64,000 nt of DNA from Escherichia virus TH47, in sequence record MT446416.1. One strand, given 5' to 3'. Positions 3,445 through 42,117 of the stretch are shown one piece after another. A program made the translations under genes and the position numbers. The notes beneath the pieces are model-generated. The model made no database searches and had not been told where the DNA came from. It saw only the letters and a program-made list of their open reading frames with translations. The number at the start of each line of letters is the position of its first letter. Positions within the stretch are counted from its first letter, which is position 1.

Positions 3445-3450
3445 TAAATA
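3445..3450 (+). promoter_or_regulatory. T4-late-like TAAATA motif 31 nt upstream of ATG 3482
   Basis: One of eight TAAATA sites found 31-36 nt upstream of gene starts in this window. Confidence 0.3.
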
Positions 3451-3481
3451 AAGATATACCCGATTTATTTTGGAGACAAAC

Positions 3482-4978
3482 ATGACATACAGAATGTGGA
3501 AAAAAGGTAGAACCAATGATTACAAGTTCATTGACTCTGCCATAGCAGAACAATACAACATCGGTGGTGTTGACATGTGGCTTTATGCCTATGTCGGACC
3601 AAAACAAGTCGCTGATAACACTGATTTATCATATGGCGGTGATTATTATGGTTCAGATAGTACCGTTGTGTCAAGCATTGGTGATTTAATTTTTGGTGAC
3701 ACTCCAAGTCGTAACTATAATCTCGAAGCTATCACCTTAAGTTGCGTCTACCAAGTCCAAGAAGCAACTCCTGACTTGAAAATCCCAGGATTGTTCTTCA
3801 ACTTTAACACTATGGACATCACAATTCATTATAACACAATGATTCAGCGTTTGGGAAGAAAAATTATGCCAGGTGACGTAATCGAACTCCCTAACTTACG
3901 TGATTTTGATGTACTTGGTAAAGATTCTGGTTTAAATCGCTTCTATGTAGTACAAGATGGGTTTAGAACATCAGAAGGTTACTCAGTTACATGGCAACAT
4001 CACATTTACAAACTCCGTGTTAAACCTCTTACTGATTCACCAGAGTATTCAGACCTTCTAGGTAACAATAACTACCCTGATGACCCAGATGAACCAAACA
4101 ACGGCAATGGTAATACTGATGATGGCTCTTCAGAGAACAGCAGCTATGGTAATGAAATGGACATTATGAACCGTATCATTATGCAAGCTGATGATGAAGT
4201 ACCATACATTCATTTTACTAACGAACACTTGTTCGATGACAGACCAGATACCGTTGATTTGTCTAAGTATATGCTAAATGGATACGAATTACCAGAGGAA
4301 CCAGCAAATAAAATGTATTTCCTCAAGAAAACTTACCCAGTACTGAAAGAACTATCTAATGATACATGGATTTCTGTAGAAGTCAAGCGTGGAACAATCT
4401 TTCCTCGCAAACCGATGGATGGTGACTTCTTCTTTAAAGAAAACGAGGCTGATGTCACTGGCTTCTCATTGTATCAATACGATAAATCTGCCAAAAAGTG
4501 GCTAAATTGTGATGTTGAGTATACTACAGAAAGCACACCACCACAAGGGGTTGATGATTTTTATATTGAATACAAAGAACCACACATTTATCAGTACTTA
4601 AATGGTAAATGGGGAGAACCAGAAGTAACTTACGTTAATGACCCATTCACTTCTAATAGTGTTTATGGAAATATCGATTCACAACAAGATTATCGTCCTA
4701 AGATTCCTCCAGCACGAGGTACAGTTCCTGAAGGTAATATGTTCCCAAGTGATGCAGTTGATGGTGATTACTACTATCGTACCGATTATACACCAGTAAC
4801 CCTATGGGAATACAGTGCATCCAAGAATTCTTGGGTGATTTTCGATTACGGTGGTAGAAAACCGTGGGAAGGTGCAGATCTTGCTCTAACAGAATTTGTT
4901 AATAGCCCGAACCGTGTACCATTACATGATGCAGTTAAACCTAATACAGCGTATCGTATACATAAGGATTCAGAATGA
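3482..4978 (+). CDS. hypothetical protein (possible virion structural)
   Basis: 498-aa ORF; ATG 3482 with GGAG SD; ORF-track start 3470 is TTG; stop overlaps next ATG (ATGA). Confidence 0.5.
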   Translation: MTYRMWKKGRTNDYKFIDSAIAEQYNIGGVDMWLYAYVGPKQVADNTDLSYGGDYYGSDSTVVSSIGDLIFGDTPSRNYNLEAITLSCVYQVQEATPDLKIPGLFFNFNTMDITIHYNTMIQRLGRKIMPGDVIELPNLRDFDVLGKDSGLNRFYVVQDGFRTSEGYSVTWQHHIYKLRVKPLTDSPEYSDLLGNNNYPDDPDEPNNGNGNTDDGSSENSSYGNEMDIMNRIIMQADDEVPYIHFTNEHLFDDRPDTVDLSKYMLNGYELPEEPANKMYFLKKTYPVLKELSNDTWISVEVKRGTIFPRKPMDGDFFFKENEADVTGFSLYQYDKSAKKWLNCDVEYTTESTPPQGVDDFYIEYKEPHIYQYLNGKWGEPEVTYVNDPFTSNSVYGNIDSQQDYRPKIPPARGTVPEGNMFPSDAVDGDYYYRTDYTPVTLWEYSASKNSWVIFDYGGRKPWEGADLALTEFVNSPNRVPLHDAVKPNTAYRIHKDSE

Positions 4979-6318
4979 AAATAGATTATTATTATGATGG
5001 TCAATTTCGTCGAGTACTGAAACATCTTATCAGAGTGTTTGGTGAATTTCAAGTACAAAATGGTGTTGATGCTGACGGAAAACCAAAATATAAGAAAGTT
5101 CCTTGCCGCTATGCAGATATTTCACGTATGGCAGCAGCAATTATTAATGGTAACAGTGAGAACGTGCTTCCAACAGCACCAATCATGACCATTAGTGTAA
5201 ACCAACTTAAACTAGATCGCAAGTCAGTTCGTTCAAACGCAAATGAAACATTAGTTATGGGGACTAACAAGTCCCCTGGAATTAACGAATATACTAAAGA
5301 CTTAGATAAACAGTATAAAGTAACTCGTCATAACCCAGTACCTTGGACATTTACGTTTGATGTTAATATTTGGGTTACACAAACACAAACTAAAATGGAA
5401 CTATTTGAGCAAATTTCAACATTGTTTGCTCCTAGTATTCAATTACAACTCTCCGAGAACCCACTGGATTGGACATCATTGAGTGATGTGGAGTTGATTG
5501 ACTGTCAATTTACTACTCGTGGTTTCCCACAAGGAACCGATAGTGATTTGGATATAATGGTATTGACATTTGAAACCACAATTTGGTTCTCTTTGCCAGC
5601 TATTGTTGAGAAACCAAAACTTATCCAACAAATCACCACCAATATTAAAGGTGCTCGTGATGAACTTGATTTTGAAATTGGTAATTACTCGGATATCATT
5701 ACTGATGTATTCACACCAAAGAACTTATGTATTAAAGTTGATGAAATAACAAACTCTGAACTTAATATCCCAGATACTTACCAACTCACTCTTGTTAGTC
5801 AATCACTATCAGAAACATCACCAAATGGTGGGATTTATTCATGGGAAAAATACCTTAAGTACTTGGACCCAGAATATGAAGACAAGACTGTAGGTATTAA
5901 ATTCCAACAAGCTATAGAAGAGGATAACCCACTAAAAGGACATATCTCTTCATTTGGGGAAGGGGCTGATTCTAACAAGATTGTAGTTCAGCTTGATAAT
6001 AGTAATTATACTGTTGATTATACAATACATGGATTCATTAGTAAAGACTCTTTGTTATATAACGCACTACCTGAACAATATTATGTAAATAATAGCATAC
6101 ATAACATCATTTACAAAGAGACTGAAATCCCAGCGAACTATTTGTTTAAAATTACCAATGATGGAGCAGAACTTATTGAGCCATCGCGAGTACACCACTA
6201 TGTTTATAATATGGAAGATAGTGGATATTATAGATATAATGACAAATTCAAATGGCATAAGAGTATTATGTCAGTATATCGTCAGGGATATTGGAAAATA
6301 ACTTTCACTGACAAATAA
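4975..6318 (+). CDS. hypothetical protein
   Basis: 447-aa ORF translationally coupled to upstream gene; no recognisable motif. Confidence 0.5.
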   Translation: MKIDYYYDGQFRRVLKHLIRVFGEFQVQNGVDADGKPKYKKVPCRYADISRMAAAIINGNSENVLPTAPIMTISVNQLKLDRKSVRSNANETLVMGTNKSPGINEYTKDLDKQYKVTRHNPVPWTFTFDVNIWVTQTQTKMELFEQISTLFAPSIQLQLSENPLDWTSLSDVELIDCQFTTRGFPQGTDSDLDIMVLTFETTIWFSLPAIVEKPKLIQQITTNIKGARDELDFEIGNYSDIITDVFTPKNLCIKVDEITNSELNIPDTYQLTLVSQSLSETSPNGGIYSWEKYLKYLDPEYEDKTVGIKFQQAIEEDNPLKGHISSFGEGADSNKIVVQLDNSNYTVDYTIHGFISKDSLLYNALPEQYYVNNSIHNIIYKETEIPANYLFKITNDGAELIEPSRVHHYVYNMEDSGYYRYNDKFKWHKSIMSVYRQGYWKITFTDK

Positions 6319-6330
6319 GGAGGTGTTGTT

Positions 6331-6795
6331 ATGAATGAAGCAGTAGGTGCTATATTTTTATCTAAAAGTACTGGACACATGATGTTAAACTTGAGATCAG
6401 AAAGAAGTACGTATTCTAACAACTGGGCATTTGTTGGTGGGAAGCTTGAGTATAATGAAACTCCGTTACAGGGTCTTATGCGTGAGATTAAAGAAGAGCT
6501 AGGTGATTCTATTCCAACGATAATAGATATTATACCATTTGATGTATTTTGTACGAAGAATGGTAAATTTAAATATTATTCATTTGTCATTGTAGTTGAA
6601 AATGAATTCGTACCTACTTTAAATCATGAGAGTTCTGGTTATGCATGGGTTAAGATTGGCTCATGGCCCAAACCATTACATCCTGGTGCAAAAAACACAT
6701 TACTTAACACAAATTTAATGAAGGATTTCTATTCATTGTGGGAAAGTATACGACAAGGTACACAGTTTGTCAACAGCTTACCATATCGATATTAA
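6331..6795 (+). CDS. Nudix hydrolase
   Basis: Nudix box GGKLEYNETPLQGLMREIKEELG (G-x5-E-x7-REUxEExGU); AGGAGG SD. Confidence 0.8.
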   Translation: MNEAVGAIFLSKSTGHMMLNLRSERSTYSNNWAFVGGKLEYNETPLQGLMREIKEELGDSIPTIIDIIPFDVFCTKNGKFKYYSFVIVVENEFVPTLNHESSGYAWVKIGSWPKPLHPGAKNTLLNTNLMKDFYSLWESIRQGTQFVNSLPYRY

Positions 6796-6800
6796 TAAAA

Positions 6801-6830
6801 AAAGGAGCCAATGGCTCCTTTTTTCTTTTT
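6801..6830. terminator. bidirectional rho-independent terminator
   Basis: aaaggagcc/ggctccttt stem flanked by A-run and T-run, between convergent genes. Confidence 0.7.
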
Positions 6831-7929
6831 ATACCCCAATTAGTGGGATACCTGTTATATTAAGTAGAACAGATACTTGAAGCTTAACTGACTCACCTGC
6901 CGAAAGGTTGTTTACTATACCATCTACGCGGAACCCTAAGTTTTTATTAGAGTTAAGAGAGTTAATCACCCAGTTTTCGTAATCCGCTTTTGTAATACCA
7001 TTCGGATTTGGGAGAGTTGGGTCAACACCATTAATTACCATAGATACATCCCAATTAGGGCGACTACTTGTAATTACATCCTTGATTGATTCTAGTTGTG
7101 TAATGCGACGTGGGTCTGGAATCTGACTTGCACCAATTGAACCAGGAACAAATTTACCTTGGTTATCAACATAGAACTGACCTTTAATGAAAAATGTTTT
7201 TGAATTATACGGAAGAGAAACAATTTCACCTGATGAATCACTAACTTCACGAATCATAATTTTCAATTCATAAAAATAGTTACTACCAAATTCAAACACA
7301 CCAGTACCATTTGTGAATGTTGTCCAGTTATTTGAATCAACCTGTGAAGTACCACCCATATTGAAGTAAGCTAATGGCTTAGTACTGTTACTTTGTGTAA
7401 ATTCAATATATTTCTTACCTGTATCATAGTTGATATCAAGTAGTGTGGAGTACTCTTTATTTTCTGGACGAGATGTTTGAATTTCACGCCATTCTTTATT
7501 TTTCATTAGGACACGAAGGGAATCACCATTACTGGTAAGAACCATACGACCCATAATACTATTTTCACCATCTGGTACGGTGTTGAAAATTGAAATCATT
7601 GGGATAGATGCCCAGTCAGCTTCAGATGCAGTATCTACTGGCTGACGAGCATTATCAACTAATGCAAGAAGTAGTTCGCCAGTGTTGCCAGTATTTCTGT
7701 ACCAAATCTGACCATTAACGTTACCACGAGGTGCAGTTGCTCCACTGAAGTTCTCAACCAAGTGGAGGAAGTTTTCGTTCCATGCTTGACCGTAACCAAC
7801 TTTATTTCGACCTGCAAAGTTTAACGGTACTGGGTTACTACCAGGTTGGTTTGGTCCTAATATTACGTTATTTGGAATGGTAGCATAAACGCTACCATTA
7901 CTTCTATAAATTGTATAACTTACACTCAT
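6829..7929 (-). CDS. hypothetical protein (possible tail/baseplate component)
   Basis: 366-aa ORF, ATG with AAGGTGA SD; first of three co-oriented genes. Confidence 0.5.
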   Translation of the reverse strand: MSVSYTIYRSNGSVYATIPNNVILGPNQPGSNPVPLNFAGRNKVGYGQAWNENFLHLVENFSGATAPRGNVNGQIWYRNTGNTGELLLALVDNARQPVDTASEADWASIPMISIFNTVPDGENSIMGRMVLTSNGDSLRVLMKNKEWREIQTSRPENKEYSTLLDINYDTGKKYIEFTQSNSTKPLAYFNMGGTSQVDSNNWTTFTNGTGVFEFGSNYFYELKIMIREVSDSSGEIVSLPYNSKTFFIKGQFYVDNQGKFVPGSIGASQIPDPRRITQLESIKDVITSSRPNWDVSMVINGVDPTLPNPNGITKADYENWVINSLNSNKNLGFRVDGIVNNLSAGESVKLQVSVLLNITGIPLIGV

Positions 7930-7941
7930 ATCATCACCTTA

Positions 7942-8550: not shown

Positions 8551-8559
8551 TTCTAATCC

Positions 8560-9057
8560 TTAGTAGTTAATTAAAATTTGTTCTAACTTACCAGCTAAAC
8601 TTTTTTGTACATCAGATGGATACTTGCTAATGTAATCACGGTCAATACCAACTTTCAGATAGGTAAAGTTTCCGGTTAAGGTTTCAGCGAATGTACCAGT
8701 TGTACCTTGTTCTCTAATAAGGTCACCACCATTTGGGTTAAGAATGACATTATCAGTAAATTCAAGATAGAAGTTGCAGCTTTCGGTAAATTTAATTGGG
8801 AACCAATCATCGTCCGATGGATTACTTGCCAGTGTAGCGAGTACGTAAATTCTACCAATGAAGTTACGTAGGGTAAAGGATATTGTATGTAATCCTGTAG
8901 TACTACCATAATAGCCGCCACTAGCTAATGATAATGTTTGTTCGTTCCAATGATAATCTAAGTTAGCAGGATACCAGCTATCTGATTCAGGAAATTCTTG
9001 CCATGAACCATCTTTAGTTTTTCTTTTGAAGAGGAAGTCTTTTGATCTTAATGCCAT
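8560..9057 (-). CDS. hypothetical protein
   Basis: 165-aa ORF; first gene of minus-strand operon. Confidence 0.45.
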   Translation of the reverse strand: MALRSKDFLFKRKTKDGSWQEFPESDSWYPANLDYHWNEQTLSLASGGYYGSTTGLHTISFTLRNFIGRIYVLATLASNPSDDDWFPIKFTESCNFYLEFTDNVILNPNGGDLIREQGTTGTFAETLTGNFTYLKVGIDRDYISKYPSDVQKSLAGKLEQILINY

Positions 9058-9088
9058 TGTTAAGCCCTTTTAGTAGTGAACTTTCATT

Positions 9089-9094
9089 TATTTA
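9089..9094 (-). promoter_or_regulatory. T4-late-like TAAATA motif 31 nt upstream of ATG 9057
   Basis: Recurrent motif and spacing. Confidence 0.3.
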
Positions 9095-9124
9095 TTAATG
9101 GCAACGAAATGTATTTTGTACTGA

Positions 9125-9130
9125 TAAATA
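9125..9130 (+). promoter_or_regulatory. T4-late-like TAAATA motif 36 nt upstream of ATG 9167
   Basis: Recurrent motif and spacing; divergent partner of the 9089 site. Confidence 0.3.
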
Positions 9131-9166
9131 TTGGTATATGACATTAACTCATACAAGGGAAATATT

Positions 9167-10294
9167 ATGACAATTTCATTCAACAATGGGTCAGGTGGTT
9201 CATGTAATAATTCTGGCATCAAAAGTTTAGTTATTAACGCTGCTGGACATTTAATTGTAACCTATTCCGACAATACAATCCAAGACCTAGGTCTAGTGGT
9301 TGGACAAAATGGTGCTAACGGTAGAAACTTTTATCCAAATGAGATAGGTTTTGAAGTTCCTAATGAACTCTTCCGTGTTGGTGAAGAACTAGGGTGGTGT
9401 TATCTTAGTCTTGCAAATGGCACTAGTACTTTATATTTTAAATCAAACGATGCACAAGAAGAAATTAGTACTTGGAACCGTGTAGAGTTTGGTAAAGGTG
9501 ATACTGGCGAAACTGGTAAACCATTCCACATTGACAGTTCTGGTACGGTGTTTCCAACAACTGGTCTTTTCAATAATTACACATTCTATAATACTGAAGA
9601 TGGTAAATTATATTTCTATCAAAGCGTAACTGCAACATGGAGTGATGGTATTCCTTTCCGTGGTGAACAAGGTCTACGTGGTCGTTTCCATATTGATAGT
9701 ACTGGTAGTCAATTCCCAAGTATTGATAATCTACCACAAGATTATTGCTTCTATAACACTACTGATGGTAATTTGTATTATGTTGATATCGTAACTACAT
9801 CATCAACCCCAACTAAAGAGTGGAGTGCTGGAATCTTATTCCGTGGTAAAGACGGTGAAGAAGGTAAGCAAGGTGAGCAAGGTGTTCAGGGTGAACCTGG
9901 TAAAGACACAGTTGTTATCATCAACACTATTGATCATTCATGGACTAACGCATTGTTAGTTATTGGTACATGCCCTGCTGGATACCTAGTAACTAATATC
10001 GAAGTTGACATTAATCAAGCATATGATGAACCAGTAAATGAAATGTTTGTACGTTTCGGTGGTGAAGCACAAGAAGATATTGGTGGTACTGTAATTGCAC
10101 CTGTTGATTATTTCGATATCAACCGCAAAATGCGTTACATTGTTAACGAAACCAACCACGAAGTATCAAGTAAAGATGAAATCATTTCTTGTGTATTCAA
10201 TGATTCCGTAAACAACAGTTCATTTGGTGAAATGAAGATCGTTTGTACTTTATCATGGCAAGCACCTATTCAGCCTATTCAAGATAACATTTAA
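9167..10294 (+). CDS. tail-fibre-like protein with collagen-like G-X-Y tract
   Basis: Seven consecutive G-X-Y triplets (GKDGEEGKQGEQGVQGEPGKD); duplicated ~30-aa segment FHIDSxG...FYNTxDGxLY; ATG 9167 preferred over TTG 9131. Confidence 0.55.
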   Translation: MTISFNNGSGGSCNNSGIKSLVINAAGHLIVTYSDNTIQDLGLVVGQNGANGRNFYPNEIGFEVPNELFRVGEELGWCYLSLANGTSTLYFKSNDAQEEISTWNRVEFGKGDTGETGKPFHIDSSGTVFPTTGLFNNYTFYNTEDGKLYFYQSVTATWSDGIPFRGEQGLRGRFHIDSTGSQFPSIDNLPQDYCFYNTTDGNLYYVDIVTTSSTPTKEWSAGILFRGKDGEEGKQGEQGVQGEPGKDTVVIINTIDHSWTNALLVIGTCPAGYLVTNIEVDINQAYDEPVNEMFVRFGGEAQEDIGGTVIAPVDYFDINRKMRYIVNETNHEVSSKDEIISCVFNDSVNNSSFGEMKIVCTLSWQAPIQPIQDNI

Positions 10295-10308
10295 AAGAGG
10301 GTTGATAC

Positions 10309-10344
10309 ATGGCAGTTTTTTCCAATTTAGAAGGGACCATGATG
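10309..10344 (+). repeat. conserved N-terminal module, copy 1, shared by adjacent fibre genes
   Basis: atggcagttttttccaatttagaagggaccatg versus copy at 12465; encodes MAVFSNLEGTM. Confidence 0.7.
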
Positions 10345-12450: not shown

Positions 12451-12464
12451 AGGAGATTATAAAA

Positions 12465-12500
12465 ATGGCAGTTTTTTCTAATTTAGAAGGAACCATGAAG
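12465..12500 (+). repeat. conserved N-terminal module, copy 2
   Basis: Near-identical to 10309-10344. Confidence 0.7.
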
Positions 12501-13364: not shown

Positions 13365-13373
13365 AAAAAATAG

Positions 13374-13406: not shown

Positions 13407-13482
13407 ATATCAATAACTAAATATATGTATATTAACAAGGTCAAATGTATTTTATGCTTTTTGCCTATTTGGAGGGAACTAA

Positions 13483-16400
13483 ATGTACTCGATTAAAACA
13501 GATCTCGATATAACTGGTGGTGCAACGGTTGGTAAAGATCTTCTTGTGAAAGGCGATGCAGTATTCAATAAAAATCTAACAGTTAATGGAACCGTAACTT
13601 TTGCTGACGCTGTATTCACTGCGATTGAAGCAGGAACTGTAGACATTTCATCTACACTAGATGTTGCTGGTAAAGCATCATTGAATGGTGGGATTGAAGT
13701 TCATGGTAATTCCGTAATTGGTAATTTACCAGTTGGCTCTGATACTGCAACGATTAATTCTAATGCACAATTCCAAAGCCCAGTATCAATGGCAGGTAAC
13801 CTAACACAAACGGCTGGCACTGCTGTACTAAAAGATACCCAAGTGGCATCAATGGATGTTCTTGGAACTTCTTCATTTAAAGGTAATATTACTGCTGAAA
13901 CTGGCACTACCGCAGCATTTGACAAAATAACTGCAACTGATGCAACATTCACAAACACTGCAACTACTGATATCACATCAACTGGAACTGCAAACTTTAA
14001 AGATGTGAATATTTCCGGTACACTAGGTGGAACATTTAGTCTATCTGATGTTAATGCAACAACTCTAACTGTTTCTGGTTTAACCAGTCTACAAGGTGGT
14101 GTTACATTAGGTTCCAACATTACTGGTGTGAATAGTAGTGCAAACTTCCGTGATATTAAAATTGGTTCCAATGCTGCAAACACTAACTACCGTTTGAGCT
14201 TTAACTATTCTGCTCCAAGTCTTCGTCCAACTGTAATTCTACAGAACGAAATCCAATCAGAATTGATGTCTCCAGCTACCCTAAGTGTATTGAAAACTGC
14301 ATCTTTTGGTGATTCGTCATTATCCACTTTTGGTATTACTGGTAATGGTCTAAACAAACTAGATTACCTAACAGTATCTGGTAACTCTGTTCAAGATCCA
14401 ACAACTCCACTATTACAAGTAACTTCAGGTAAAACTAAAGTTCATGATTTCGAAGTAACAGGAACTGCAACTATTCCTAACATTGAAAGTACTGGAACTG
14501 CTAATTTTAATAACATCAACGTATCTGGTACACTCGGCGGTACTTTCAGTCTTGATGATATTGAAGCAAACACTCTAACTGTTTCTGGATTAACTAGCCT
14601 TGTTGGTGGTGTAACTTTGGGTGCTGATATTTCCGGTGCTAATAGTACTGCTAATTTTAAAGCAGTAAGTTTAGGACAAAACGCAGCCGATGCTAACGTT
14701 AAGTATGGTTTTGCTTATTCTGCCCCTGGTGCACGTCCAACTGTAATTCTACAAAATGAAATTCAGTCTGAACTAGTATCTCCAGCAGTACTAAATGTAC
14801 AAAAAACTGCTACCTTCGGTGATGCATCTCTTGCAACCTATGGTATCACAGGTAACGGTCTAAACAAACTAGATTATCTATCTATTACTGGTAATGGTAC
14901 ACAAAGTCCAGCAACGCCACAACTACAAGTAGCTGGTAAATCAGTACTAAATGATGTTGAATTCACTGGTACTGTAACTGGCCTAACAGTTGATGTAAGT
15001 GGTCAAGACCTAACTCCTAAATCTGTTGTTGCTGCTGAAGCAATCAAAGGACAAACCCTTGAATCTGTTGGTCAAACCACCGTAGGAACTAACCTACAAG
15101 TTGGTGGAACAGCTAATGTTGTTGGTGCACTAACTGGTACTGCTGCAACCTTTACTGGTGACGTAAGTGCTGCTAAAGGTACTTTCAGTGGTGATGTTAG
15201 CGTTACTGGGCAAACTGTAACTGTACGTGATTTAGTAGTAACTGGCACAACTACTGGTGTAACTGCCCAAGCTGACGTTGATGGTCTTGATATCGCCCCA
15301 AATAAAGTTGATGTTACAACAACACTATCTGTTGCTGGGGACACTACTTTAGCTGGTCTAACTGCTAGTTCAGTAACAAGTACTGGTGATGTTACTGGTG
15401 CGTCTGTATCTGGTAATACAGTAACTGCGGCTGGTGCACTATCTGGTGGTTCTCTTGCAGTAACTGGTGCTGGTTCTATGGCTTCACTAACTGTTCCAAG
15501 TATTACTGGGGACACTACTTTTGCTAATAACGTAACTATTACTGGAACACTAACTCCGAGTAGTATAGATTTAAGCACTACTGATGTAAGTGCTGCTTCT
15601 TTAACAACTACTGGTAACGTAACTGTTGGTGGTTCTCTTGCAGTAACTGGTGCTATTGATTTGTCTGCTGCTGATGTAGTAACAAAATCAGTTAGTGCAA
15701 CTAACCCAAGTACATTTGGTGTAATTAATGCATCTTCTGTTGCCGCAACTGGTGACGTTTCAGGTGGCACTCTAACTACTACTGGTGCAGCGAAAGTAGG
15801 AACACTAACTAGTACTGGTGTAGTATCTGGTTCGCGTTTGTCTTCTGGTACTGCAACAATCTCAACTTCTGTAACAGTTCCAACTTTACAAGCTGAAGCT
15901 GCTGGTGCTGGTACACTAAATCTAGCAAGTAATGTTGTCGCGGCAAAAGATCTAACTGTCACTGGTGTATTCAAACCTGAAGGTGGTCTTGACCTAACAA
16001 CTGTTGATATTACTGCAAACTCACTAACTACTACTGCTGATGTTAATGTTGGTGGAAACTTAGTAGTTGATGGTACTTTTGACCTAAGTGCTGCTGATGT
16101 ATCAGTTAAATCTCTTGTAAGTGCAGAGGCAATTACTAGTGGTGGTGTGATTACCGTTACCGATTCAACCAATACTAGTTCGTTCCCTAAAATTACTTCA
16201 ACTGATGCAACACTCTTTACAGTAAATGCAGGTACTATTAATGCAACTGGCAACAGTGTACTACAAAGTGTATCAGCTACTCAAGTAACTGCTACTAGTG
16301 CTGAATTTTCTGGTAGTGGCCTTGGTCTTCAAGTTGATAATGATGCAAACGTTGGTGGTGCATTATCTGTTGGTGGCATTGCAACTGTTGGTTCTTTAAC

Positions 16401-18441
16401 AACAACTGCTGCTTCTCTTAATATTGCAAAAAATACTGCAATCAATGGTGATTTAGCTGTATCTGGTACACTAACTGCTGGTTCAATCGACCTAAGCAAT
16501 ACTGATGTAACCGTTAAATCTCTTGATTCACTAGGTAACGCACACATTGCTGGTAACCTAACTGTTGATGGTGCATTCGACTTAAGTGCAACTAACCTTG
16601 TAGCTGCAAGTCTAGCAAGTACTGGTTCTACTACTGTTGGAACTGATCTAGTACTAACAACTGGTGTTGTGACTGGTAGCCCAGCTATCTCTGGTAATAC
16701 AACAATCGGTGGAACTCTTGGTGTAACTGGTGCTGTTAACCTAACTGATATTGTTAATATCGGTAAGAAAGTAACAGTGAGTACTGGTGGTATTCAGGTA
16801 GTTGATGGTGGTATCAATACTAACACAATTAACGTTTCTGGTGCTACTACTCTAGCAGGAACTTCCATTACTGGAACTTTAGGTGTAACTGGTGCTTCTA
16901 CTCTAGCAGGTGTATCTGCAACATCACTAACAGTTTCTGGTGACAGTACTGTTCAGAAACTAACTGTCCAAGGTGAATTGATCCCACAAGGTGGTCTTGA
17001 CCTAAGCGGTGCAGACATTACTGCTAATAGTCTAACTACTGCAACAACTATCAATGCAACTGGCCTAAGTACTCTAAGTGGTGGTGTTAGTACTTCTACT
17101 GTGACTGCATCTGGTCTAGCAACTGTTGGAAGTTTAACTTCTACTGCAAACGCATCAGTTGGTGGTAATTTGGGTGTAACTGGAACTCTAGGTGTTACTG
17201 GTGCAACTACTGTATCTTCACTAACAGCTACTGGTGCAGTGAAAACTGGTACAACCCTAACTGTTGGTACTCCAGTTGGTGAACAACCTGAAACTGTACA
17301 GATCATTCCAGATACTTATATTGCTGGTAAATTGCGTGTAATCGGCGGTATTAACGCTGATATTGATGTTAGTGGTCAAACACTAGAACCATATGCAATT
17401 GAAGCTGCTGCAACACTATCTGCTGTTGGTAACATTACTTCTGGTGCAACCATCGTTTCTAAAGCTGCAACAATTGGTGATGTTGGTTCACAAAACAACA
17501 ACCTAACTGTTAATGGTAACGTAGTAACTAATGGTGACTTCACAGTTACTGGGGTACTAAATGCACAATTGAACCAAGCAGATTCCGATGTAGCTGTTAA
17601 ATCTTTAACTGCAACTAATAACGTTGCGGCTGGTACTTCAATCACTGCTGGTACTTCCATCACTGCAACTGGATTACTTAAAGGTAATACTTTAGAAGTT
17701 ACTACTACTGGTTCATTTGGTGGTGCAGTAACTATGTCAAGTGGTGCAAACATCACTGGTACAGTGGGTATTACTGCTGGTGACCTAACAGTAGGTGGTA
17801 ATATCTCTGCAACTGGCACTGCTGGATTCGGTGCAACAACCGTTTCTACAATTACAACATCAGGTTTGGCTACACTTGCAAGTACATCCGTTACTGGTAA
17901 CGCAACAGTAGGTGGAACACTAGCAGTAACAGGAGCACTAACTGCGAATGGTAACGTAACATTAGGTGACGCAGCGGCTGACGTTCTAACCGTTAATGCA
18001 ACTTCATCATTTAAAGAAAATGCTGTGTTTGATAAGGCAGTAACAGTAACTGGTGAACTAACCACTACTAATGCTAACTTAACTACTACAACAGTAACTA
18101 CCAAAAAGTATGATGTAATCCCAACTCAAGTTACATCATCAGTAATTGCTCCAACCGGAACATGGACTCCAGATGGTACAAGTAACGTGTACTTCATCAC
18201 TCTAGACCAAGATACCACGTTGGCTCCAATTACTGGCCTAATTGGTGGCGGTAAAGCTGCATCAGTATACATCTATGTTAAACAAGATACAACTGGTAAC
18301 AGAAACTTTACAACTGATGGTACTTATGCTGTTGTTGATGGTGAACTAAACAAAACTGCTGGTAGCGTGACCATTTACCAAGTAATTTATGATGGTGTAA
18401 GTCCAGTTACTGATTTGTTCATTGCACAACGTACTGCTTAA
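13483..18441 (+). CDS. giant repetitive fibrous protein (1652 aa)
   Basis: T/G/V/S/A-rich periodic sequence; GGAGGG SD; tandem 170-aa duplication near N-terminus. Confidence 0.6.
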   Translation: MYSIKTDLDITGGATVGKDLLVKGDAVFNKNLTVNGTVTFADAVFTAIEAGTVDISSTLDVAGKASLNGGIEVHGNSVIGNLPVGSDTATINSNAQFQSPVSMAGNLTQTAGTAVLKDTQVASMDVLGTSSFKGNITAETGTTAAFDKITATDATFTNTATTDITSTGTANFKDVNISGTLGGTFSLSDVNATTLTVSGLTSLQGGVTLGSNITGVNSSANFRDIKIGSNAANTNYRLSFNYSAPSLRPTVILQNEIQSELMSPATLSVLKTASFGDSSLSTFGITGNGLNKLDYLTVSGNSVQDPTTPLLQVTSGKTKVHDFEVTGTATIPNIESTGTANFNNINVSGTLGGTFSLDDIEANTLTVSGLTSLVGGVTLGADISGANSTANFKAVSLGQNAADANVKYGFAYSAPGARPTVILQNEIQSELVSPAVLNVQKTATFGDASLATYGITGNGLNKLDYLSITGNGTQSPATPQLQVAGKSVLNDVEFTGTVTGLTVDVSGQDLTPKSVVAAEAIKGQTLESVGQTTVGTNLQVGGTANVVGALTGTAATFTGDVSAAKGTFSGDVSVTGQTVTVRDLVVTGTTTGVTAQADVDGLDIAPNKVDVTTTLSVAGDTTLAGLTASSVTSTGDVTGASVSGNTVTAAGALSGGSLAVTGAGSMASLTVPSITGDTTFANNVTITGTLTPSSIDLSTTDVSAASLTTTGNVTVGGSLAVTGAIDLSAADVVTKSVSATNPSTFGVINASSVAATGDVSGGTLTTTGAAKVGTLTSTGVVSGSRLSSGTATISTSVTVPTLQAEAAGAGTLNLASNVVAAKDLTVTGVFKPEGGLDLTTVDITANSLTTTADVNVGGNLVVDGTFDLSAADVSVKSLVSAEAITSGGVITVTDSTNTSSFPKITSTDATLFTVNAGTINATGNSVLQSVSATQVTATSAEFSGSGLGLQVDNDANVGGALSVGGIATVGSLTTTAASLNIAKNTAINGDLAVSGTLTAGSIDLSNTDVTVKSLDSLGNAHIAGNLTVDGAFDLSATNLVAASLASTGSTTVGTDLVLTTGVVTGSPAISGNTTIGGTLGVTGAVNLTDIVNIGKKVTVSTGGIQVVDGGINTNTINVSGATTLAGTSITGTLGVTGASTLAGVSATSLTVSGDSTVQKLTVQGELIPQGGLDLSGADITANSLTTATTINATGLSTLSGGVSTSTVTASGLATVGSLTSTANASVGGNLGVTGTLGVTGATTVSSLTATGAVKTGTTLTVGTPVGEQPETVQIIPDTYIAGKLRVIGGINADIDVSGQTLEPYAIEAAATLSAVGNITSGATIVSKAATIGDVGSQNNNLTVNGNVVTNGDFTVTGVLNAQLNQADSDVAVKSLTATNNVAAGTSITAGTSITATGLLKGNTLEVTTTGSFGGAVTMSSGANITGTVGITAGDLTVGGNISATGTAGFGATTVSTITTSGLATLASTSVTGNATVGGTLAVTGALTANGNVTLGDAAADVLTVNATSSFKENAVFDKAVTVTGELTTTNANLTTTTVTTKKYDVIPTQVTSSVIAPTGTWTPDGTSNVYFITLDQDTTLAPITGLIGGGKAASVYIYVKQDTTGNRNFTTDGTYAVVDGELNKTAGSVTIYQVIYDGVSPVTDLFIAQRTA
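13978..14997 (+). repeat. tandem duplication (2 x about 510 bp) inside the giant fibre gene
   Basis: Protein segments 166-335 and 336-500 align over their full length (STGTANF...TVILQNEIQSEL...GITGNGLNKLDYL). Confidence 0.7.
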
Positions 18442-19339: not shown

Positions 19340-19345
19340 TAAATA
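19340..19345 (+). promoter_or_regulatory. T4-late-like TAAATA motif 34 nt upstream of ATG 19380
   Basis: Recurrent motif and spacing. Confidence 0.3.
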
Positions 19346-19379: not shown

Positions 19380-21344
19380 ATGAGTATAAATCGAATTAGA
19401 GGTGATGGTGGTGTAATTATAGATAGTCAGGCATTTCTAGAATTACCTAAAGCACCGACTAAAGAAACCGCTGATGTGGTTAGATCAGGGATGATTAGAT
19501 ACAATAAAGGATGGAAAGCATTTGAAGGTGTACTAGACTTTGAAGATGGTTCAATGGCATATCGACGTTTTGCAAACCTAGATGCGAACGGTAAACTTCT
19601 TACTTCCCAATTACCAGATTCAGTAACTAGTGGTTTACAATTTGTTGGTACATATAATCCCATCCCAGATGATATCGATCCACCTTTAGCACAAACTCCA
19701 CTACCAGCACCATCACCATCGCTTAATGGTGATTATTATGTCGTTCGTGGTATAATGGATGCCGCACAAGCACATTATGAAGCAAATAATCCACAAACAA
19801 GTCCTGTTACATTTACACCTACAAATCCAACTGGACAAGGTAATTGGATTGAAATTTTATATTATGTTGACTCTAATCCAAATATATCTGGTGCTAAACT
19901 AGTAACATACGCTTTTGCTAGAATTATTACTGCATCTATTCCCAGTACTGGACATGATGGCCTTGAAAATTTAGCAACAGATACTGACTTGACCAAACCA
20001 TTTGCATCTGGTGTTCCAATGAACCAAACTGCACTTTCAGATGGCGATTGGATTATTATAACTGAAGATAAGAATATACGTCTTCGTCAGTCAAGAACAA
20101 GCATTTCCGCTGCTTCAGTATTATATGACAATACTGTAATGATTGCAAATCATCGTCAATTTAGAACAAACGCAGGGACCGTTCAAACATCCATAGATAA
20201 CGTTGTGATTGAGTGTTTACGTAGAACTGGCGATTCCATGTATAATGATGGAACAGACGGCTCTGGGCGTTTTGGGGTGGTGTATGGCAGTGCAGCAGCA
20301 CCAGCATTGACATTTAATAATAATCCGTTTGACCCAACGAATAACCCAGGTAATGACCCAACTAAGTGGTCCGATGCTAATACTGGTATATTTCATCCAT
20401 CCGATGACGCAATTGGGTTCAGCACTGCTGGCACAGAACGTGTTCGAATTAATAATGGAACACTAACATTATTCCAAACTACCGCTACACCAGCAGCTAC
20501 GCCAGTAATACGTTTTGATAATGCATCAAACACAAACGTAGGGATAAGTGCAAGTAGTAATATTATTTCTTTAAGTTCAATGAATAAAGTTCAAGTTGAA
20601 TTTAAAAATGGTGAATCACATTTTCATGGAAATATTATTGTAGATGGTTCAACATCACTAACTGGTGATTTAGACGCAGGTAACATCAATGCCAGCGGGA
20701 ATTTAGTTGTTAAAGGTAATACAACACTAGGTGACACTACTGGTGACACTATTACAGTTAATGGTGTTAGTACTTATAATGCAAATACTAATTTCAATGG
20801 AACTAATAACAAATTCAAAAACATAAACTTACTAGAGAATGGTGTATTCACATTAGAAAGTACTACAAACCAAAGTGATATAAAACTACTTGGTGCAGAC
20901 TTACGTTTCACTATGGGAAGTTATGCTGATGTAAGTATATATGATAACGGTGTTATTCGTACTCGTTTCAACCGATATGGTATTCAATTACCAGTACTGG
21001 CTACAATTGATAACTCGGTTGGTGTTGATGGTATGATTGCATACTCAAATACCGAACGTACATCGATGCAGAAGGTTCAAGGACAATGGGTTCCAATTGG
21101 TTCTGGTTCTGTTCGTACTGACCCGTTTGTTGCGTCAGCGTGGGTTTTAAACGGCTCATATTACACATTAACAGTAACTGCTAGTAACATAGTAACTGCT
21201 GAAATTCAAGAACTCGTAAGTACTGGTGTTTACACTCGTGTTGAAGTTGATAGTGTTACATTCAATGGAACAAGCGTAGTGTTCAGTATCCCTGCAACTC
21301 CTGATGTGAGATTTGCCGGACGTACACTGGTTACATTAAGATAA
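19380..21344 (+). CDS. tail-fibre-like protein
   Basis: 654-aa ORF; N-terminal GMIRYNKGWKAFEGV segment and Gly/Asn/Thr-rich body resemble fibre proteins. Confidence 0.5.
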   Translation: MSINRIRGDGGVIIDSQAFLELPKAPTKETADVVRSGMIRYNKGWKAFEGVLDFEDGSMAYRRFANLDANGKLLTSQLPDSVTSGLQFVGTYNPIPDDIDPPLAQTPLPAPSPSLNGDYYVVRGIMDAAQAHYEANNPQTSPVTFTPTNPTGQGNWIEILYYVDSNPNISGAKLVTYAFARIITASIPSTGHDGLENLATDTDLTKPFASGVPMNQTALSDGDWIIITEDKNIRLRQSRTSISAASVLYDNTVMIANHRQFRTNAGTVQTSIDNVVIECLRRTGDSMYNDGTDGSGRFGVVYGSAAAPALTFNNNPFDPTNNPGNDPTKWSDANTGIFHPSDDAIGFSTAGTERVRINNGTLTLFQTTATPAATPVIRFDNASNTNVGISASSNIISLSSMNKVQVEFKNGESHFHGNIIVDGSTSLTGDLDAGNINASGNLVVKGNTTLGDTTGDTITVNGVSTYNANTNFNGTNNKFKNINLLENGVFTLESTTNQSDIKLLGADLRFTMGSYADVSIYDNGVIRTRFNRYGIQLPVLATIDNSVGVDGMIAYSNTERTSMQKVQGQWVPIGSGSVRTDPFVASAWVLNGSYYTLTVTASNIVTAEIQELVSTGVYTRVEVDSVTFNGTSVVFSIPATPDVRFAGRTLVTLR

Positions 21345-27808: not shown

Positions 27809-27809
27809 C

Positions 27810-28799
27810 TTATTTGTCCCCTAGAAATTGTTGATATTTCTTCTGGAGACTTTCGAAAATGTCTTCGACTTCTTCATCGCTTTCATCTTCTAGTTCTTCG
27901 TTACCTTCCACGGACTCATCACTCTCATTAACATTGAGTGGGTTGTCACCTAGAGCAGTACCTGGAAACTTAGGTTCAAATTTGTGAACACGGTTCTCGT
28001 TACCGTCATTGTCATAGTACTCTGGTTCAGGACGATTGTCAACATCTTCATCAACGACACGTCTCCAGTAGAACTTGTTACCCTTGGTAATAACAACAAA
28101 GTGGTCACCTTCTACACCATTAGTTTTAGCTTGACCGTCACGAACGGCATCAGCTTCAGTGTTGTAAGGTCCAAAATCAGTACTGTCACCTTGTTCTTCA
28201 TCTTCAGAGATGGTTAGGTCTGGTAGGAAAGTGTTTTCTTCAACTTTAACTTCAGTATCTGGGTTACCTTCTACTGAATATTCATCTTCTGGTTCGTCTT
28301 GAAGACCAGCTAGAGATAGCATACGACTGAAATCGAATTCTTCTTCGATGATTTCTTCTTCTTCCTCTTCTTCAACTGATTCTAGTTGAGGTTGACCGGA
28401 AAGATCTAAAGAAAACTCTTCTTCATCTGCAACCCCAGGCTCTTCGAACTCTGCATCCATACTTACTTCTTCAGAATCACCACCAAAATCACCAGCTTCA
28501 GCAGATAGTGAGTCAGCAGCTACTTCCAATGGGTCTTCAACTGGTGCATCAATCGCACCATCCATTGCACCACCAACTTCTTCTTCAGCACCAGCACCAA
28601 TGGAATCCATGTCGAGTGGAGCGATTGGTGGTAGAGAAGGGGTCATAGACCCCATAGAAGGAACTGGAGCAGCAACAGGAGAAGCTTGACGCTCTGCTTG
28701 ACCAGCTAATGCAAGCATACGAGATAGTGTTTCTAGATCTTCAGATTCTAGACCTGCGATATCGATTTTAACTTGTGCTTCATTAATTTTTTTAGCCAT
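27810..28799 (-). CDS. highly acidic (Glu/Asp-rich) protein
   Basis: 329-aa ORF, strongly acidic low-complexity C-terminal half. Confidence 0.5.
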   Translation of the reverse strand: MAKKINEAQVKIDIAGLESEDLETLSRMLALAGQAERQASPVAAPVPSMGSMTPSLPPIAPLDMDSIGAGAEEEVGGAMDGAIDAPVEDPLEVAADSLSAEAGDFGGDSEEVSMDAEFEEPGVADEEEFSLDLSGQPQLESVEEEEEEEIIEEEFDFSRMLSLAGLQDEPEDEYSVEGNPDTEVKVEENTFLPDLTISEDEEQGDSTDFGPYNTEADAVRDGQAKTNGVEGDHFVVITKGNKFYWRRVVDEDVDNRPEPEYYDNDGNENRVHKFEPKFPGTALGDNPLNVNESDESVEGNEELEDESDEEVEDIFESLQKKYQQFLGDK

Positions 28800-28821
28800 T
28801 TTAAATAAATCCTTTTAGTTA

Positions 28822-39256: not shown

Positions 39257-41251
39257 TTAATATTTTTTTGTGTATTTTATATTACCAGAGTTGTAAATCT
39301 TATAATATCCCAATACATCACAGCAAATTTGTCTCTCAGTTAAGTTAATATCATGACCTTTCTTGACCAATTTATGTTTTTGACATTTCTGACGTGAAAT
39401 CCTCTCATGTGTTTGTGGGTCATAATAAAAATATCCGGGTTCTGTATAGCTATCAAACTCAAAGCCAAGAACTGTATAAAGATCACCACTACTCCAATCC
39501 ATATCCGCATATGTCAATAATGATTGTGGATTATATACTGTTTCAAAATATTTTAGTAATTTTGATGCACCACCAACAACTGTACCGGATGAACAGTATC
39601 TGATTAATTCATATTCATAGTTTTTATCAAACCTTGATTTACCAAAGGTCATAACTGCAACTAAATCACTTCCATAGTAAAGTCCAATGTGAATACTTGC
39701 TTGTGCAACACCTTGAATATGGTGTGATTTAGTAAACATATTACTTACTTGTTTGTCTATATTTCTAACAGTACATTTTCTAGCATAAATTCTATTTGAC
39801 ACTAGAAGTTTATTCTTTAAACGTTCCTTGATAATTTTATTTGTTAATGGGTTATCCCATTCATCTTCATAAATGTGAATAAGATTCACCCCATGTTTTA
39901 AACAATCCAATACCTTATCTTGATGTTTAGTGGAATTTACATTTTCATCATTATGCCAATACACACCATTAAATTCAATAGCTAGATTACGGTCTGGGAT
40001 ATACACATCCAACTCTTTAGGTTTCAGCACTGAACGGTCGTTTTCTATAATTTGCATATTTTGTATTAATGATTTTATATAATCAACTAAATCTTTCTCT
40101 TTCAATGAATGACCATTATTTTTCTGACACTTACATTTCACTTTATGATTTTTATACTTACTATAAAACAATTCATCACAATACTCACACCAAAATGGGT
40201 ATTCGTCTGTATTAACTTTCATCATTAGGTCGGTGTTTTCAAATAATGGAATATAGTTTTTATCAATATTTGCAACAATGATATTATATCTTTCGTCTAG
40301 ACGAGCAAGTGACATTTTCTCTTTATACTCATCAGTCTGTGAGTAGTGTTCTGAACCATATCTATTTTTTGTGGTTTCTTTCATTTTTTCAATGATAGAA
40401 TTATTTTGGGCTGGGTGTTTTACACCATATCGCTCCACATTGGTATTATGAACTTTTTCCTGAACACTCATATTGCTCATTGGGTAAAATGAATTATACT
40501 TCAACGTGTTGGTGTTTTTTATTTTATCTTGGACAATTTTATTTGATAGTGGATTGCCACCATATCGTTCAAGATTTGTTTTATTGATTTTTTCACGAAT
40601 CGTCGGTGATGATAAAGAATACTCAGCACCGTATCTTAATATATTTGTGTTTTTGGCTTTCTCTTTTACTTCATTTCTTTTGCTTTGGAATTCAACACCA
40701 TACTTTTTTAAATTTGTTGCTTTTACTTTATTGAATATTTCAGAGTTTTGGTTTGGATATTCACAACCATATCGCTCTATATTAGTTTGTTTGATTTTAT
40801 CTTTAGTTTCTGATGTTTGTAAATTAGATGAGACACCATAACGCTCAATGTTAGTTTTTTCTTTCTTTTGTTTTACTTCTTGTATTTGGGACACATTAGA
40901 TACACCATACATATCCATTAATGTTGATTTTGTTTTATTAGTTCGATTTTTATAATACATTTCATGGCATACATTACATGTATTTTTCTTATTAATCACA
41001 TAGTCATCACAAAATTTATAAAATCCTTTTTGGAAATTTTTGTATCTTGCTTTTTTTCCGCAATATGCAGTTGGAACGGTTGTTATATCATTCATGAACA
41101 TATATAGAATTTTATATATTTCGAAATCAGTTTTTGGTTCTATTCCAAAAGTAGAAAGGAGAACCCTCACACGAGAGTCCCCTTTGTATAAATGTACCCA
41201 TGAATTAATATGTTTTGACAACAAAAGTTTTTTTAATTCTTCATTGTTCAT
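39257..41251 (-). CDS. homing-endonuclease-like protein with ten ~23-aa RYG repeats and a Vsr-like nuclease domain
   Basis: Cys-rich N-terminus; ten ~23-aa R/K-Y-G/N repeats; C-terminal LAIEFNGVYWH motif typical of PD-(D/E)xK homing-endonuclease-like domains. Confidence 0.6.
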   Translation of the reverse strand: MNNEELKKLLLSKHINSWVHLYKGDSRVRVLLSTFGIEPKTDFEIYKILYMFMNDITTVPTAYCGKKARYKNFQKGFYKFCDDYVINKKNTCNVCHEMYYKNRTNKTKSTLMDMYGVSNVSQIQEVKQKKEKTNIERYGVSSNLQTSETKDKIKQTNIERYGCEYPNQNSEIFNKVKATNLKKYGVEFQSKRNEVKEKAKNTNILRYGAEYSLSSPTIREKINKTNLERYGGNPLSNKIVQDKIKNTNTLKYNSFYPMSNMSVQEKVHNTNVERYGVKHPAQNNSIIEKMKETTKNRYGSEHYSQTDEYKEKMSLARLDERYNIIVANIDKNYIPLFENTDLMMKVNTDEYPFWCEYCDELFYSKYKNHKVKCKCQKNNGHSLKEKDLVDYIKSLIQNMQIIENDRSVLKPKELDVYIPDRNLAIEFNGVYWHNDENVNSTKHQDKVLDCLKHGVNLIHIYEDEWDNPLTNKIIKERLKNKLLVSNRIYARKCTVRNIDKQVSNMFTKSHHIQGVAQASIHIGLYYGSDLVAVMTFGKSRFDKNYEYELIRYCSSGTVVGGASKLLKYFETVYNPQSLLTYADMDWSSGDLYTVLGFEFDSYTEPGYFYYDPQTHERISRQKCQKHKLVKKGHDINLTERQICCDVLGYYKIYNSGNIKYTKKY
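40277..40939 (-). repeat. in-frame ~69-bp tandem repeats encoding the RYG modules
   Basis: RYG/KYG/RYN recur every 22-24 residues (protein positions ~115-323). Confidence 0.6.
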
Positions 41252-41277
41252 ATAGTTCTCTTTTTAAATGTTTAAAT

Positions 41278-42069
41278 TTATCCGATAATCATTCCAAGTG
41301 GTTCCCCACCATCTTTATATCGCTTCAACTGTTCTTTTAGTTGTTCTTGTAATTGGATACCTTCATTTCTTAATGTATCACCATCCATTGAAAATGTCCC
41401 TTGCGGTCCAGGCAATGAAGCAAACTTAGCACGGTTACGACCAAGCATAATCATTGCTTCAGACAATGCCCAATCACGAAGCCACGGGTAACTTTGCTGA
41501 CGTTGGAATAACAATGGTTCTGGGATGTTATGATATACATGTAATAATACTTCTTCTGTACCACGAATATCACGATCAATAATAAGTTTCTTAGTCATTT
41601 GGTTGAATTGGAATATAATTTCACGTCCAAACATACGACCAACCAATTCTTGAAATTGAAAGCTGAAATCATATGTTGTTAGGTCATATCCACCTGCATT
41701 CCTAGCAGACGTCAATAGATATGTATTTGTGAATGCCAATGAGAATGGGTCTACGCTGTTACCTGACCCAGAACTTAAATAACCATTACCATAACGATAA
41801 ATCTTTTTAACAATTTCTACTTCTGTTGGTAGCATATATACCGATTGTGAATCATAAAATTTCATATTTAAAAATGCTTCTTCTTTAGAAGCAGAACTCC
41901 ACGCTCTGTAATTTGATACAGCATTATCAATTGCAATTTCTAATTGACCATCAGTAATTTCTACCTCAACTGCACCTGCTCCCAACATTTGAGTGATAAC
42001 ATCTTTCAGTTTTTCACGATGATCAAAATTAGGAGCATCTGGGTTTCCACCCATATAATTGTAAGACAT
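41278..42069 (-). CDS. hypothetical protein
   Basis: 263-aa ORF; its GAGGTG SD lies in the 3' arm of the upstream hairpin. Confidence 0.5.
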   Translation of the reverse strand: MSYNYMGGNPDAPNFDHREKLKDVITQMLGAGAVEVEITDGQLEIAIDNAVSNYRAWSSASKEEAFLNMKFYDSQSVYMLPTEVEIVKKIYRYGNGYLSSGSGNSVDPFSLAFTNTYLLTSARNAGGYDLTTYDFSFQFQELVGRMFGREIIFQFNQMTKKLIIDRDIRGTEEVLLHVYHNIPEPLLFQRQQSYPWLRDWALSEAMIMLGRNRAKFASLPGPQGTFSMDGDTLRNEGIQLQEQLKEQLKRYKDGGEPLGMIIG

Positions 42070-42075
42070 AAAAAA

Positions 42076-42117
42076 AGCACCTCATTAATGTTTATATATA
42101 CATTATTTAGAGGTGCT
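42076..42117 (-). promoter_or_regulatory. SD-sequestering hairpin with TAAATA late-like motif in its loop
   Basis: Stem agcacctc/gaggtgct; 3' arm contains the SD; loop carries TAAATA 34 nt upstream of ATG 42069. Confidence 0.45.

Follow-up and report, generated by a model that had tools for sequence, protein, structure and literature searches.

The late promoters of phage T4 consist of a single box, TATAAATA, at positions -13 to -6, with A/T-rich DNA downstream and no -35 element (PMC2988020). They are used by the sigma factor gp55, acting with gp33 and the gp45 sliding clamp (PMC2988020; PMC7892883, PDB 7D7C/7D7D). In late promoters of Aeromonas phage Aeh1, a/gC replaces TA at -13/-12 (PMC2988020). 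Closer to the phage considered here, Buttimer et al. (2017) applied MEME to regions upstream of structural genes in Pectobacterium phage CBB and obtained the motif ATAAATA, with A/T-rich DNA downstream, at 35 locations (PMC5259590). The motif was also found in Cronobacter phage GAP32 (Abbasifar et al. 2014) and was likened to T4 TATAAATA (PMC5259590). These authors identified a gp55-like sigma factor, CBB_244, but did not find gp33 or gp45 (PMC5259590). In this report, we analyze the hexamer TAAATA in a 64-kb stretch of Escherichia virus TH47 (MT446416.1; hereafter, the window), part of the genome of a RaK2/121Q-like jumbo myophage that infects E. coli. We consider it very likely that TAAATA is the core -10-type box of late promoters that are read by a gp55-family sigma factor in this phage.

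The element is the same as that predicted in CBB and GAP32, found here in another genus of the same group; this identification is solid, but it is not new. The motif and the A/T-rich DNA downstream of it precede the same orthologous structural genes, and nine genes are concordant on the CBB sequence. The systems differ in host and genus, the phage here infecting E. coli, and both descriptions are in silico predictions. What our analysis adds to the CBB work is genome-wide statistics, intolerance of mismatches, depletion of the hexamer elsewhere, breadth across contigs and structural support for the sigma factor. The genome papers on fEgEco12 and Sharanji, which are the closest E. coli relatives, do not analyse promoters.

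The window is AT-rich, with a GC content of about 36%. Its virion genes include those for the sheath, two or three tube paralogues, neck, fibres and several 'virion structural proteins', and it also encodes nucleotide-metabolism genes and many small open reading frames (ORFs). Compared over a 5-kb piece, the window shares 99.0% identity with the 381-kb Escherichia phage WPEC5 and about 85% with 121Q/PBECO4. The window is mostly colinear with WPEC5 from position 210491 onward, at 94.8-98.6% identity and with few indels; a single 1.1-kb block is only 87% identical. The sheath protein is 100% identical to its counterpart in phage vB_Ec-M-J, which, like WPEC5, is about 98-99% identical to the window phage. 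Genome-wide tests were run on the complete WPEC5 genome (PV654397.1) as a near-identical stand-in, and conservation was assessed by using the syntenic regions (~42 kb) of 121Q, CBB and Yersinia phage fHe-Yen9-04 (hereafter, Yen9-04).

TAAATA is rare in the window, except where a promoter would be expected. Both strands together contain 39 copies, versus 101 +/- 9 in dinucleotide-preserving shuffles (about 2.6-fold depletion), and 15 of these 39 fall within the 5% of the window that is intergenic. When all 6-mers were ranked without prior choice by their occurrence in the sense zone from -75 to -15 of 81 called genes, TAAATA was first (15 sense copies versus 2 antisense, 11-fold, hypergeometric p=1.3e-12). 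The same unbiased approach applied to all of WPEC5 placed 77 of 188 TAAATA copies in this zone, with 9 antisense (p=7.5e-50), and the top two upstream 6-mers were TAAATA and the sigma-70 -10 hexamer TATAAT. A third of the WPEC5 copies (64/188) lie 20-49 nt before a start codon, which is a 12.9-fold enrichment; each of the 18 single-mismatch variants reaches at most 2.0-fold at that distance. The distance from box to start codon has a sharp peak at 25-39 nt, which comprises 48 sites. Of the 54 genomic copies of ATAAATA, 32 lie at 20-49 nt, and 8 of the 12 genomic copies of TATAAATA are in the zone.

WPEC5 as a whole contains 188 copies of TAAATA, versus 300-780 for each single-mismatch neighbour. 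The depletion suggests selection against spurious late promoters within genes.

These statistics bear on the simplest alternative, namely that the sites amount to weak -10-like boxes for host sigma-70 in AT-rich DNA, or reflect chance or selection bias. The low GC content invites such an explanation, and the preliminary description, which had inspected only regions upstream of genes, had itself raised the concern of bias. That concern is ruled out by the prior-free rankings of the window and WPEC5 (p=1e-12 and 7.5e-50, respectively) together with the mismatch controls, in which AT-rich neighbours of the hexamer are not enriched; the same results refute chance as an explanation. In addition, the strand bias is 15 to 2, the box is kept across genera while its flanks diverge, and TAAATA agrees with TATAAT at only three of six positions and is not accompanied by a -35 element. 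We therefore regard this alternative as barely credible.

All eight boxes reported in the preliminary description are present, with gaps (nucleotides between the motif's 3' end and the start codon) of 31-36 nt, or 50 nt for the sheath gene. Eight further sense-oriented copies, some of them beyond the range covered by that description, lie 27-59 nt upstream of start codons, giving 16 sites in the window:

3445..3450, plus strand: TAAATA box, 31 nt before the virion structural protein gene 3482-4978.
9089..9094, minus strand: TAAATA box, 31 nt before gene 8560-9057(-); half of a back-to-back pair.
9125..9130, plus strand: TAAATA box, 36 nt before the tail protein gene 9167-10294; partner of the box at 9089.
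13418..13423, plus strand: TAAATA box, 59 nt before the 1652-aa fibre-like gene 13483-18441, just past a terminator-like hairpin and T-run.
19340..19345, plus strand: TAAATA box, 34 nt before the structural gene 19380-21344, past a terminator-like hairpin.
28833..28838, minus strand: TAAATA box, 33 nt before the virion protein gene 27810-28799, within the 3' end of the upstream gene.
30927..30932, minus strand: TAAATA copy, 43 nt before gene 30338-30883; the weakest candidate.
31449..31454, minus strand: TAAATA box, 28 nt before the virion protein gene 30887-31420, overlapping the stop codon of the upstream gene.
34382..34387, minus strand: TAAATA box, 34 nt before the tail tube gene 33571-34347, right after the terminator 34420-34397.
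35159..35164, minus strand: TAAATA box, 35 nt before the tail tube gene 34437-35123.
35461..35466, minus strand: TAAATA box, 33 nt before the 48-aa ORF 35281-35427(-), right after the sheath-gene terminator 35504-35483.
38225..38230, minus strand: TAAATA box, 50 nt before the tail sheath gene 35511-38174.
42104..42109, minus strand: TAAATA box, 34 nt before the neck/head-tail adaptor gene 41278-42069.
43869..43874, minus strand: TAAATA box, 46 nt before the 80-aa gene 43580-43822.
55881..55886, minus strand: TAAATA box with the full TATAAATA, 37 nt before the DUF5856 gene 55400-55843.
59780..59785, minus strand: TAAATA box, 27 nt before the Rz-like spanin gene 59378-59752.

The 48-aa ORF is annotated in WPEC5 as CDS0425. 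A 104-aa ORF on the opposite strand, 35144-35458(+), shares its region with the tail-tube promoter, with the 48-aa ORF and its own TAAATA box and with the sheath terminator, and is probably spurious.

The boxes are conserved in more distant phages. Ten boxed genes of the window have orthologues in 121Q, CBB and Yen9-04, and nine of them retain the box with little change in its distance, even though the nine proteins are only 43-76% identical in CBB and Yen9-04. The gaps in 121Q, CBB and Yen9-04, respectively, are 33, 31 and 31 nt for the gene beginning at 19380; 33, 28 and 32 nt for the box at 28833; 35, 36 and 40 nt for that at 35159; 47, 48 and 45 nt for that at 43869; and 28 nt in all three phages for that at 31449. 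The tenth gene (30883) has TAAATA in 121Q only. The box before gene 13483 has an equivalent in WPEC5 at 223910 and is absent from the distant matches in the other relatives (38-54% identity), which may not be orthologues. About 40 genes of the window that lack a box also lack one in each of the three relatives. In orthologous alignments, the hexamer forms an invariant island between diverged flanks.

The same pattern extends to environmental sequences. We collected 75 IMG/VR loci, mostly on environmental contigs, by anchoring on the sheath N-terminus (44-96% protein identity). TAAATA lies 26-56 nt before the start codon in 74 of these 75 loci, and the flanks are unrelated. To judge from this retention across orthologues and sheath loci, the TAAATA element is under strong purifying selection over a broad clade.

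The architecture of the sites resembles that of T4 late promoters. In a sequence logo built from the 76 WPEC5 sites with a gap of 15-70 nt, the region upstream of the box has an information content of at most 0.22 bits and contains no -35-like element. Downstream, A is enriched and G and C are depleted at +5 to +8 past the box. Immediately 5' of the core, 38 of the 76 sites have A; one position further upstream, only 18 have T. The sites do not match the host sigma-70 pattern (TTGACA, a spacer of 16-18 nt and TATAAT, or TGnTATAAT), as no -35 signal is present. We also considered and rejected a bipartite motif, TAAATA-N3-6-TATA; the 76-site logo has a diffuse A/T-rich stretch and no second box.

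TAAATA corresponds to positions -11 to -6 of the T4 late box and is invariant here. In both systems, a single -10-type element without a -35 is followed by A/T-rich DNA and occurs on either strand before virion and lysis genes. The likeness to the T4 late consensus noted in the preliminary description holds for the core and extends to the missing -35 and the downstream composition, but not to the whole octamer: six bases are fixed here rather than eight, and the 5' TA (-13/-12) is not conserved, with A at about 50% just upstream of the core. Aeh1 is similar in this respect: its late promoters retain TAAATA but differ from the octamer at the first two positions. However, Aeh1-type phages differ in having a recognisable gp55 with a clamp-binding motif, as well as gp45.

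The genes that follow the boxes are largely those expected of a late class. In WPEC5, boxes precede genes for the major head protein, prohead protease, portal region, a tail fibre and baseplate, as well as those for a 3323-aa protein, sheath, tube, neck, an endonuclease VII-like protein and an Rz-like spanin. The plus strand of WPEC5 at 26.6-45 kb carries an array of RCC1/ATS1-repeat paralogues ('chromosome condensation regulator'), eleven of which have their own box at 25-30 nt. These proteins are therefore predicted to be late, and are possibly virion-associated. The DUF5856 gene, for which the annotation of relatives gives a starvation-inducible DNA-binding (Dps-like) protein and whose box is conserved, is an unexpected member of the late class.

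Matches to a sigma-70-type pattern, defined as TTGAC-N17-19-TAnnnT, have a distribution along the genome that is complementary to that of TAAATA boxes. In WPEC5, they concentrate in the terminal repeats and in regions of small genes, and hardly any lie at 120-250 kb. In the structural region of the window, they are no more frequent than in shuffled sequence (54 versus 63.6 expected), and terminator-like hairpins are abundant (20 versus 6.8 expected); several boxes stand directly behind a terminator.

The long terminal repeat of WPEC5 (1-21 kb and 360-381 kb) has many small ORFs on the minus strand, contains sigma-70-type matches at their highest density and has no TAAATA sites. It is presumably the early region.

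Divergently transcribed gene pairs are informative, because the shared intergenic region must hold the promoters. Three such regions between structural genes (57-146 nt) each contain two back-to-back boxes, 31-41 nt from the start codons, and no sigma-70-type match. One example in the window is the 109-nt region 9058-9166, with two boxes and zero sigma-70-type matches. Where a non-structural gene diverges from a structural gene, the sigma-70-type match is on the non-structural side and the TAAATA box is on the structural side. Examples are the gp55-like gene itself, discussed below, and the ClpA-like ATPase gene (window 1085-3373), which shares an intergenic region with the box at 3445 and has sigma-70-type matches on its own side.

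This organization also bears on whether TAAATA might work in RNA, for instance in the leader, where it could enhance translation or affect processing or stability, rather than as a DNA promoter. A fixed distance to the start codon and strand specificity are also expected of an RNA element. However, leaders carrying it would have to be transcribed from somewhere, and the structural regions have no excess of sigma-70-type matches with which to make them. The short divergent regions must hold promoters and contain just the two boxes, and boxes commonly stand right behind terminators. Moreover, the box tolerates no single mismatch, as suits recognition of DNA by a protein, and it is identical to the core of the T4 late box. 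We consider a function in RNA very improbable.

If TAAATA is a promoter box read by a phage sigma factor, the genome should encode a suitable protein. No gp55-like and no sigma-70-like protein was found in the 64 kb of the window. In WPEC5, a candidate is encoded ~19.5 kb upstream of the window start: WPEC5_CDS0383 (190031-190969, minus strand), which adjoins gp47- and gp46-like genes, an arrangement reminiscent of T4, where the neighbours are genes 46 and 47. Searches with single sequences were weak or negative. CDS0383 had no match in Pfam and none in the Protein Data Bank (PDB) by phmmer, T4 gp55 detected nothing among all ORFs by phmmer, and BLASTP of CDS0383 against T4 gp55 gave 25% identity with E=3e-4. 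Detection required profile and fold comparisons.

CDS0383 matches the PHROG family 'late sigma transcription factor' (phrog_234, E=1.5e-16, residues 161-295), its own family being phrog_12791. A profile of 20 homologues searched against the PDB found T4 gp55 (7D7C chain F, E=6e-7) as the only significant sequence, and hhalign of the gp55-like family with T4 gp55 gave 90%. AlphaFold was run on a 92%-identical protein, P0001, in place of the WPEC5 sequence (pLDDT 82.5). The sole convincing fold match by Foldseek was again T4 gp55, 7D7C chain F (prob 1.00, root-mean-square deviation 1.9 A over 98 columns, target-normalised TM 0.57). On the basis of these profile and model comparisons, WPEC5_CDS0383 is a gp55-family sigma factor and a distant relative of T4 gp55. 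The model has a fold like sigma domain 2 and no region 4. The protein is larger than its T4 relative (~280 aa versus 185 aa), with an insertion of ~125 residues after the N-terminal helix in alignments, which appears as a mixed alpha/beta domain in the model.

Because the model is disordered over residues 1-37 and most homologues have a length of about 286 aa, the true start is likely to be near Met34, which is preceded by a good Shine-Dalgarno (SD) sequence; the annotation of CDS0383 probably begins about 33 codons too early. An extended -10 sigma-70-type promoter, TGCTATAAT, lies upstream of Met34, which fits a cascade from early/middle to late expression.

The genome also encodes a sigma-70-family protein with regions 2 and 3 (WPEC5_CDS0184), and this protein might read TAAATA instead of the gp55-like protein. 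We consider this unlikely. Factors of the sigma-70 family normally need a -35 or an extended -10, and TAAATA sites have neither, whereas the box is the core of the element read by T4 gp55. A separate TGAAACG...TATA class proposed in CBB would suit a sigma-70-like factor better; a crude regular expression for this middle motif gives only 7 matches in WPEC5.

The preliminary description had proposed a T4-type late system whose factors are encoded outside the window. For the sigma factor this is borne out by PHROG, profile and fold comparisons in WPEC5. The other factors could not be recovered: gp33 and gp45 were not detectable, as in CBB, and the sigma factor lacks a clamp-binding tail, which sets this phage apart from T4. 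A gp44-like clamp loader is present in WPEC5. No sliding clamp was found in Pfam and PHROG scans of 18 ORFs, chosen for lying beside the clamp loader or for a length of 190-290 aa in the replication module, and a scan for LDFL-like C-termini returned mostly spurious ORFs and nothing convincing. The idea that the insertion in the gp55-like protein is a fused gp33 was rejected at the sequence level (hhalign 0.1%).

Several observations argue against identifying TAAATA as a gp55-type late promoter box, and some of them concern these partners. A hydrophobic C-terminal clamp-binding epitope is conserved in gp55 proteins of the T4 family (PMC2988020); T4 gp55 ends in ...SLDFLYEAND and gp33 in ...TLDFLL. 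The C-termini of 20 members of the gp55-like family are charged or polar and lack an LDFL-type epitope. Searches by phmmer of all WPEC5 and window ORFs found nothing with T4 gp33, although a small, fast-evolving protein could escape sequence searches, and no match with T4 gp45 or gp62, these searches being sequence-based and not structure-based. In T4, gp55 alone supports only weak basal transcription (PMC2988020). The link from sigma factor to box relies on analogy with T4. Some boxes stand before genes with no evident late character, such as the DUF5856/Dps-like gene and small ORFs at 50-100 kb, and the copy at 30927 is kept in 121Q but not in CBB or Yen9-04. In the literature on RaK2-like phages we found no start-site mapping or timed expression for close relatives, and RNA-seq of the distant relative PA5oct yielded only sigma-70-like promoter motifs.

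On balance, the sequence evidence indicates that this phage has the half of the T4 system that recognises promoters, and that clamp-dependent activation is not evident. A possible, but rather doubtful, interpretation is that a broad and mostly uncultured clade of large phages has a gp55-type sigma factor that is uncoupled from the sliding clamp and gp33 and reads a minimal 6-bp box, with the inserted domain of ~125 residues or an unrecognised partner supplying activation.

The motif statistics, the position, strand and gene class of the boxes, their conservation, and the presence and fold of the gp55-like protein are observed. We infer that this protein reads the TAAATA box, and likewise the start position and the timing, and propose the following scheme. 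The gp55-family sigma factor would be made after early/middle expression from its sigma-70-type promoter. It would then displace sigma-70 on the host RNA polymerase core and open DNA at TAAATA without contacting a -35 element. Transcription would start ~6 nt past the box, yielding leaders of ~20-35 nt before virion and lysis genes on either strand, and a box right after a terminator would create a self-contained late unit. At the sheath gene, the neck gene and gene 3482, the box would lie inside the region encoding the 5' arm of a hairpin that hides the ribosome-binding site, so that only late-initiated transcripts would be translated.

Predicted hairpins of this kind were evaluated by comparing the folding energy (dG) with and without the 5' arm, and by a z score against shuffled 5' arms:

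38178..38241, minus strand: predicted RNA hairpin over the sheath promoter, in which the 5' arm AAATCCTTCAA, just upstream of the box, pairs with the SD region TTGGAGGATTT.
42077..42116, minus strand: predicted RNA hairpin over the neck-gene promoter, in which GCACCTC, upstream of the box, pairs with the SD sequence GAGGTGC.
3431..3481, plus strand: predicted RNA hairpin over the promoter of gene 3482, with the SD sequence in the 3' arm.
43833-43876, minus strand: predicted RNA hairpin at gene 43822.

In this layout the SD sequence forms the 3' arm, and the 5' arm is just upstream of the box or overlaps it. The dG values with and without the 5' arm are -17.7 and -5.2 for the sheath gene, 38174 (z=-3.9); -16.9 and -0.7 for the neck gene, 42069 (z=-5.2); -15.9 and -3.3 for gene 3482 (z=-4.4); and -16.7 and -5.0 for gene 43822 (z=-1.9). 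The arms at the neck gene in CBB and Yen9-04 differ from those in the E. coli phages and still pair (CCCCTAAA/TTTAGGGG). The sheath hairpin is kept in RaK2-like relatives and is confined to the RaK2-like subclade; it would block translation of read-through transcripts only.

A precedent is known in T4, in which the late promoters of e, soc, 49 and I-TevI are in DNA encoding the 5' side of an inhibitory structure, which restricts translation to late-initiated transcripts (PMC3014915). The sheath gene, neck gene and gene 3482 are similar in having the box in or beside a 5' arm that pairs with the SD sequence. The difference is that the hairpins predicted here are at major structural genes, and those in T4 are at lysis, nuclease and decoration genes. 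By analogy with T4, the layout would fit transcription starting a few bases past the box. Hairpins that hide the SD sequence are not enriched genome-wide (12 of 65 late sites versus 31 of 282 controls, p=0.14), and so a general association with late promoters is not supported. Because of this result, and because the sheath hairpin is confined to one subclade, we treat the hairpins as gene-specific.

The comparison with relatives also revealed insertions in the window. The RlaP-type nucleotidyltransferase gene, 60233-62509(-), encodes 758 aa with a LAGLIDADG domain, and the WPEC5 version encodes 412 aa; relative to WPEC5, ~1.0 kb (about 60512-61547) is inserted within the gene. This insertion is probably an intein with a homing endonuclease. 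Two other genes have no counterpart in WPEC5 or in the syntenic regions of 121Q, CBB and Yen9-04. The first, 39257-41251(-), encodes a 664-aa DUF7487 protein and is inserted between the neck gene and the neighbours upstream of the neck gene. The second, 45980-47047(-), encodes a 355-aa protein with a DUF4379 treble-clef zinc finger. Both are possibly mobile or homing-type insertions.

The distribution of TAAATA indicates that the core of the T4 late promoter reaches well beyond the classical T4-like phages, to RaK2-like phages and to many environmental phages. If the sigma factor of this clade is indeed uncoupled from the clamp, late transcription in these phages would not be tied to replication as it is in T4. 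The 16 sites of the window, and about 76 across the genome, provide a usable map of late promoters for a group of E. coli jumbo phages that is under development for therapy.

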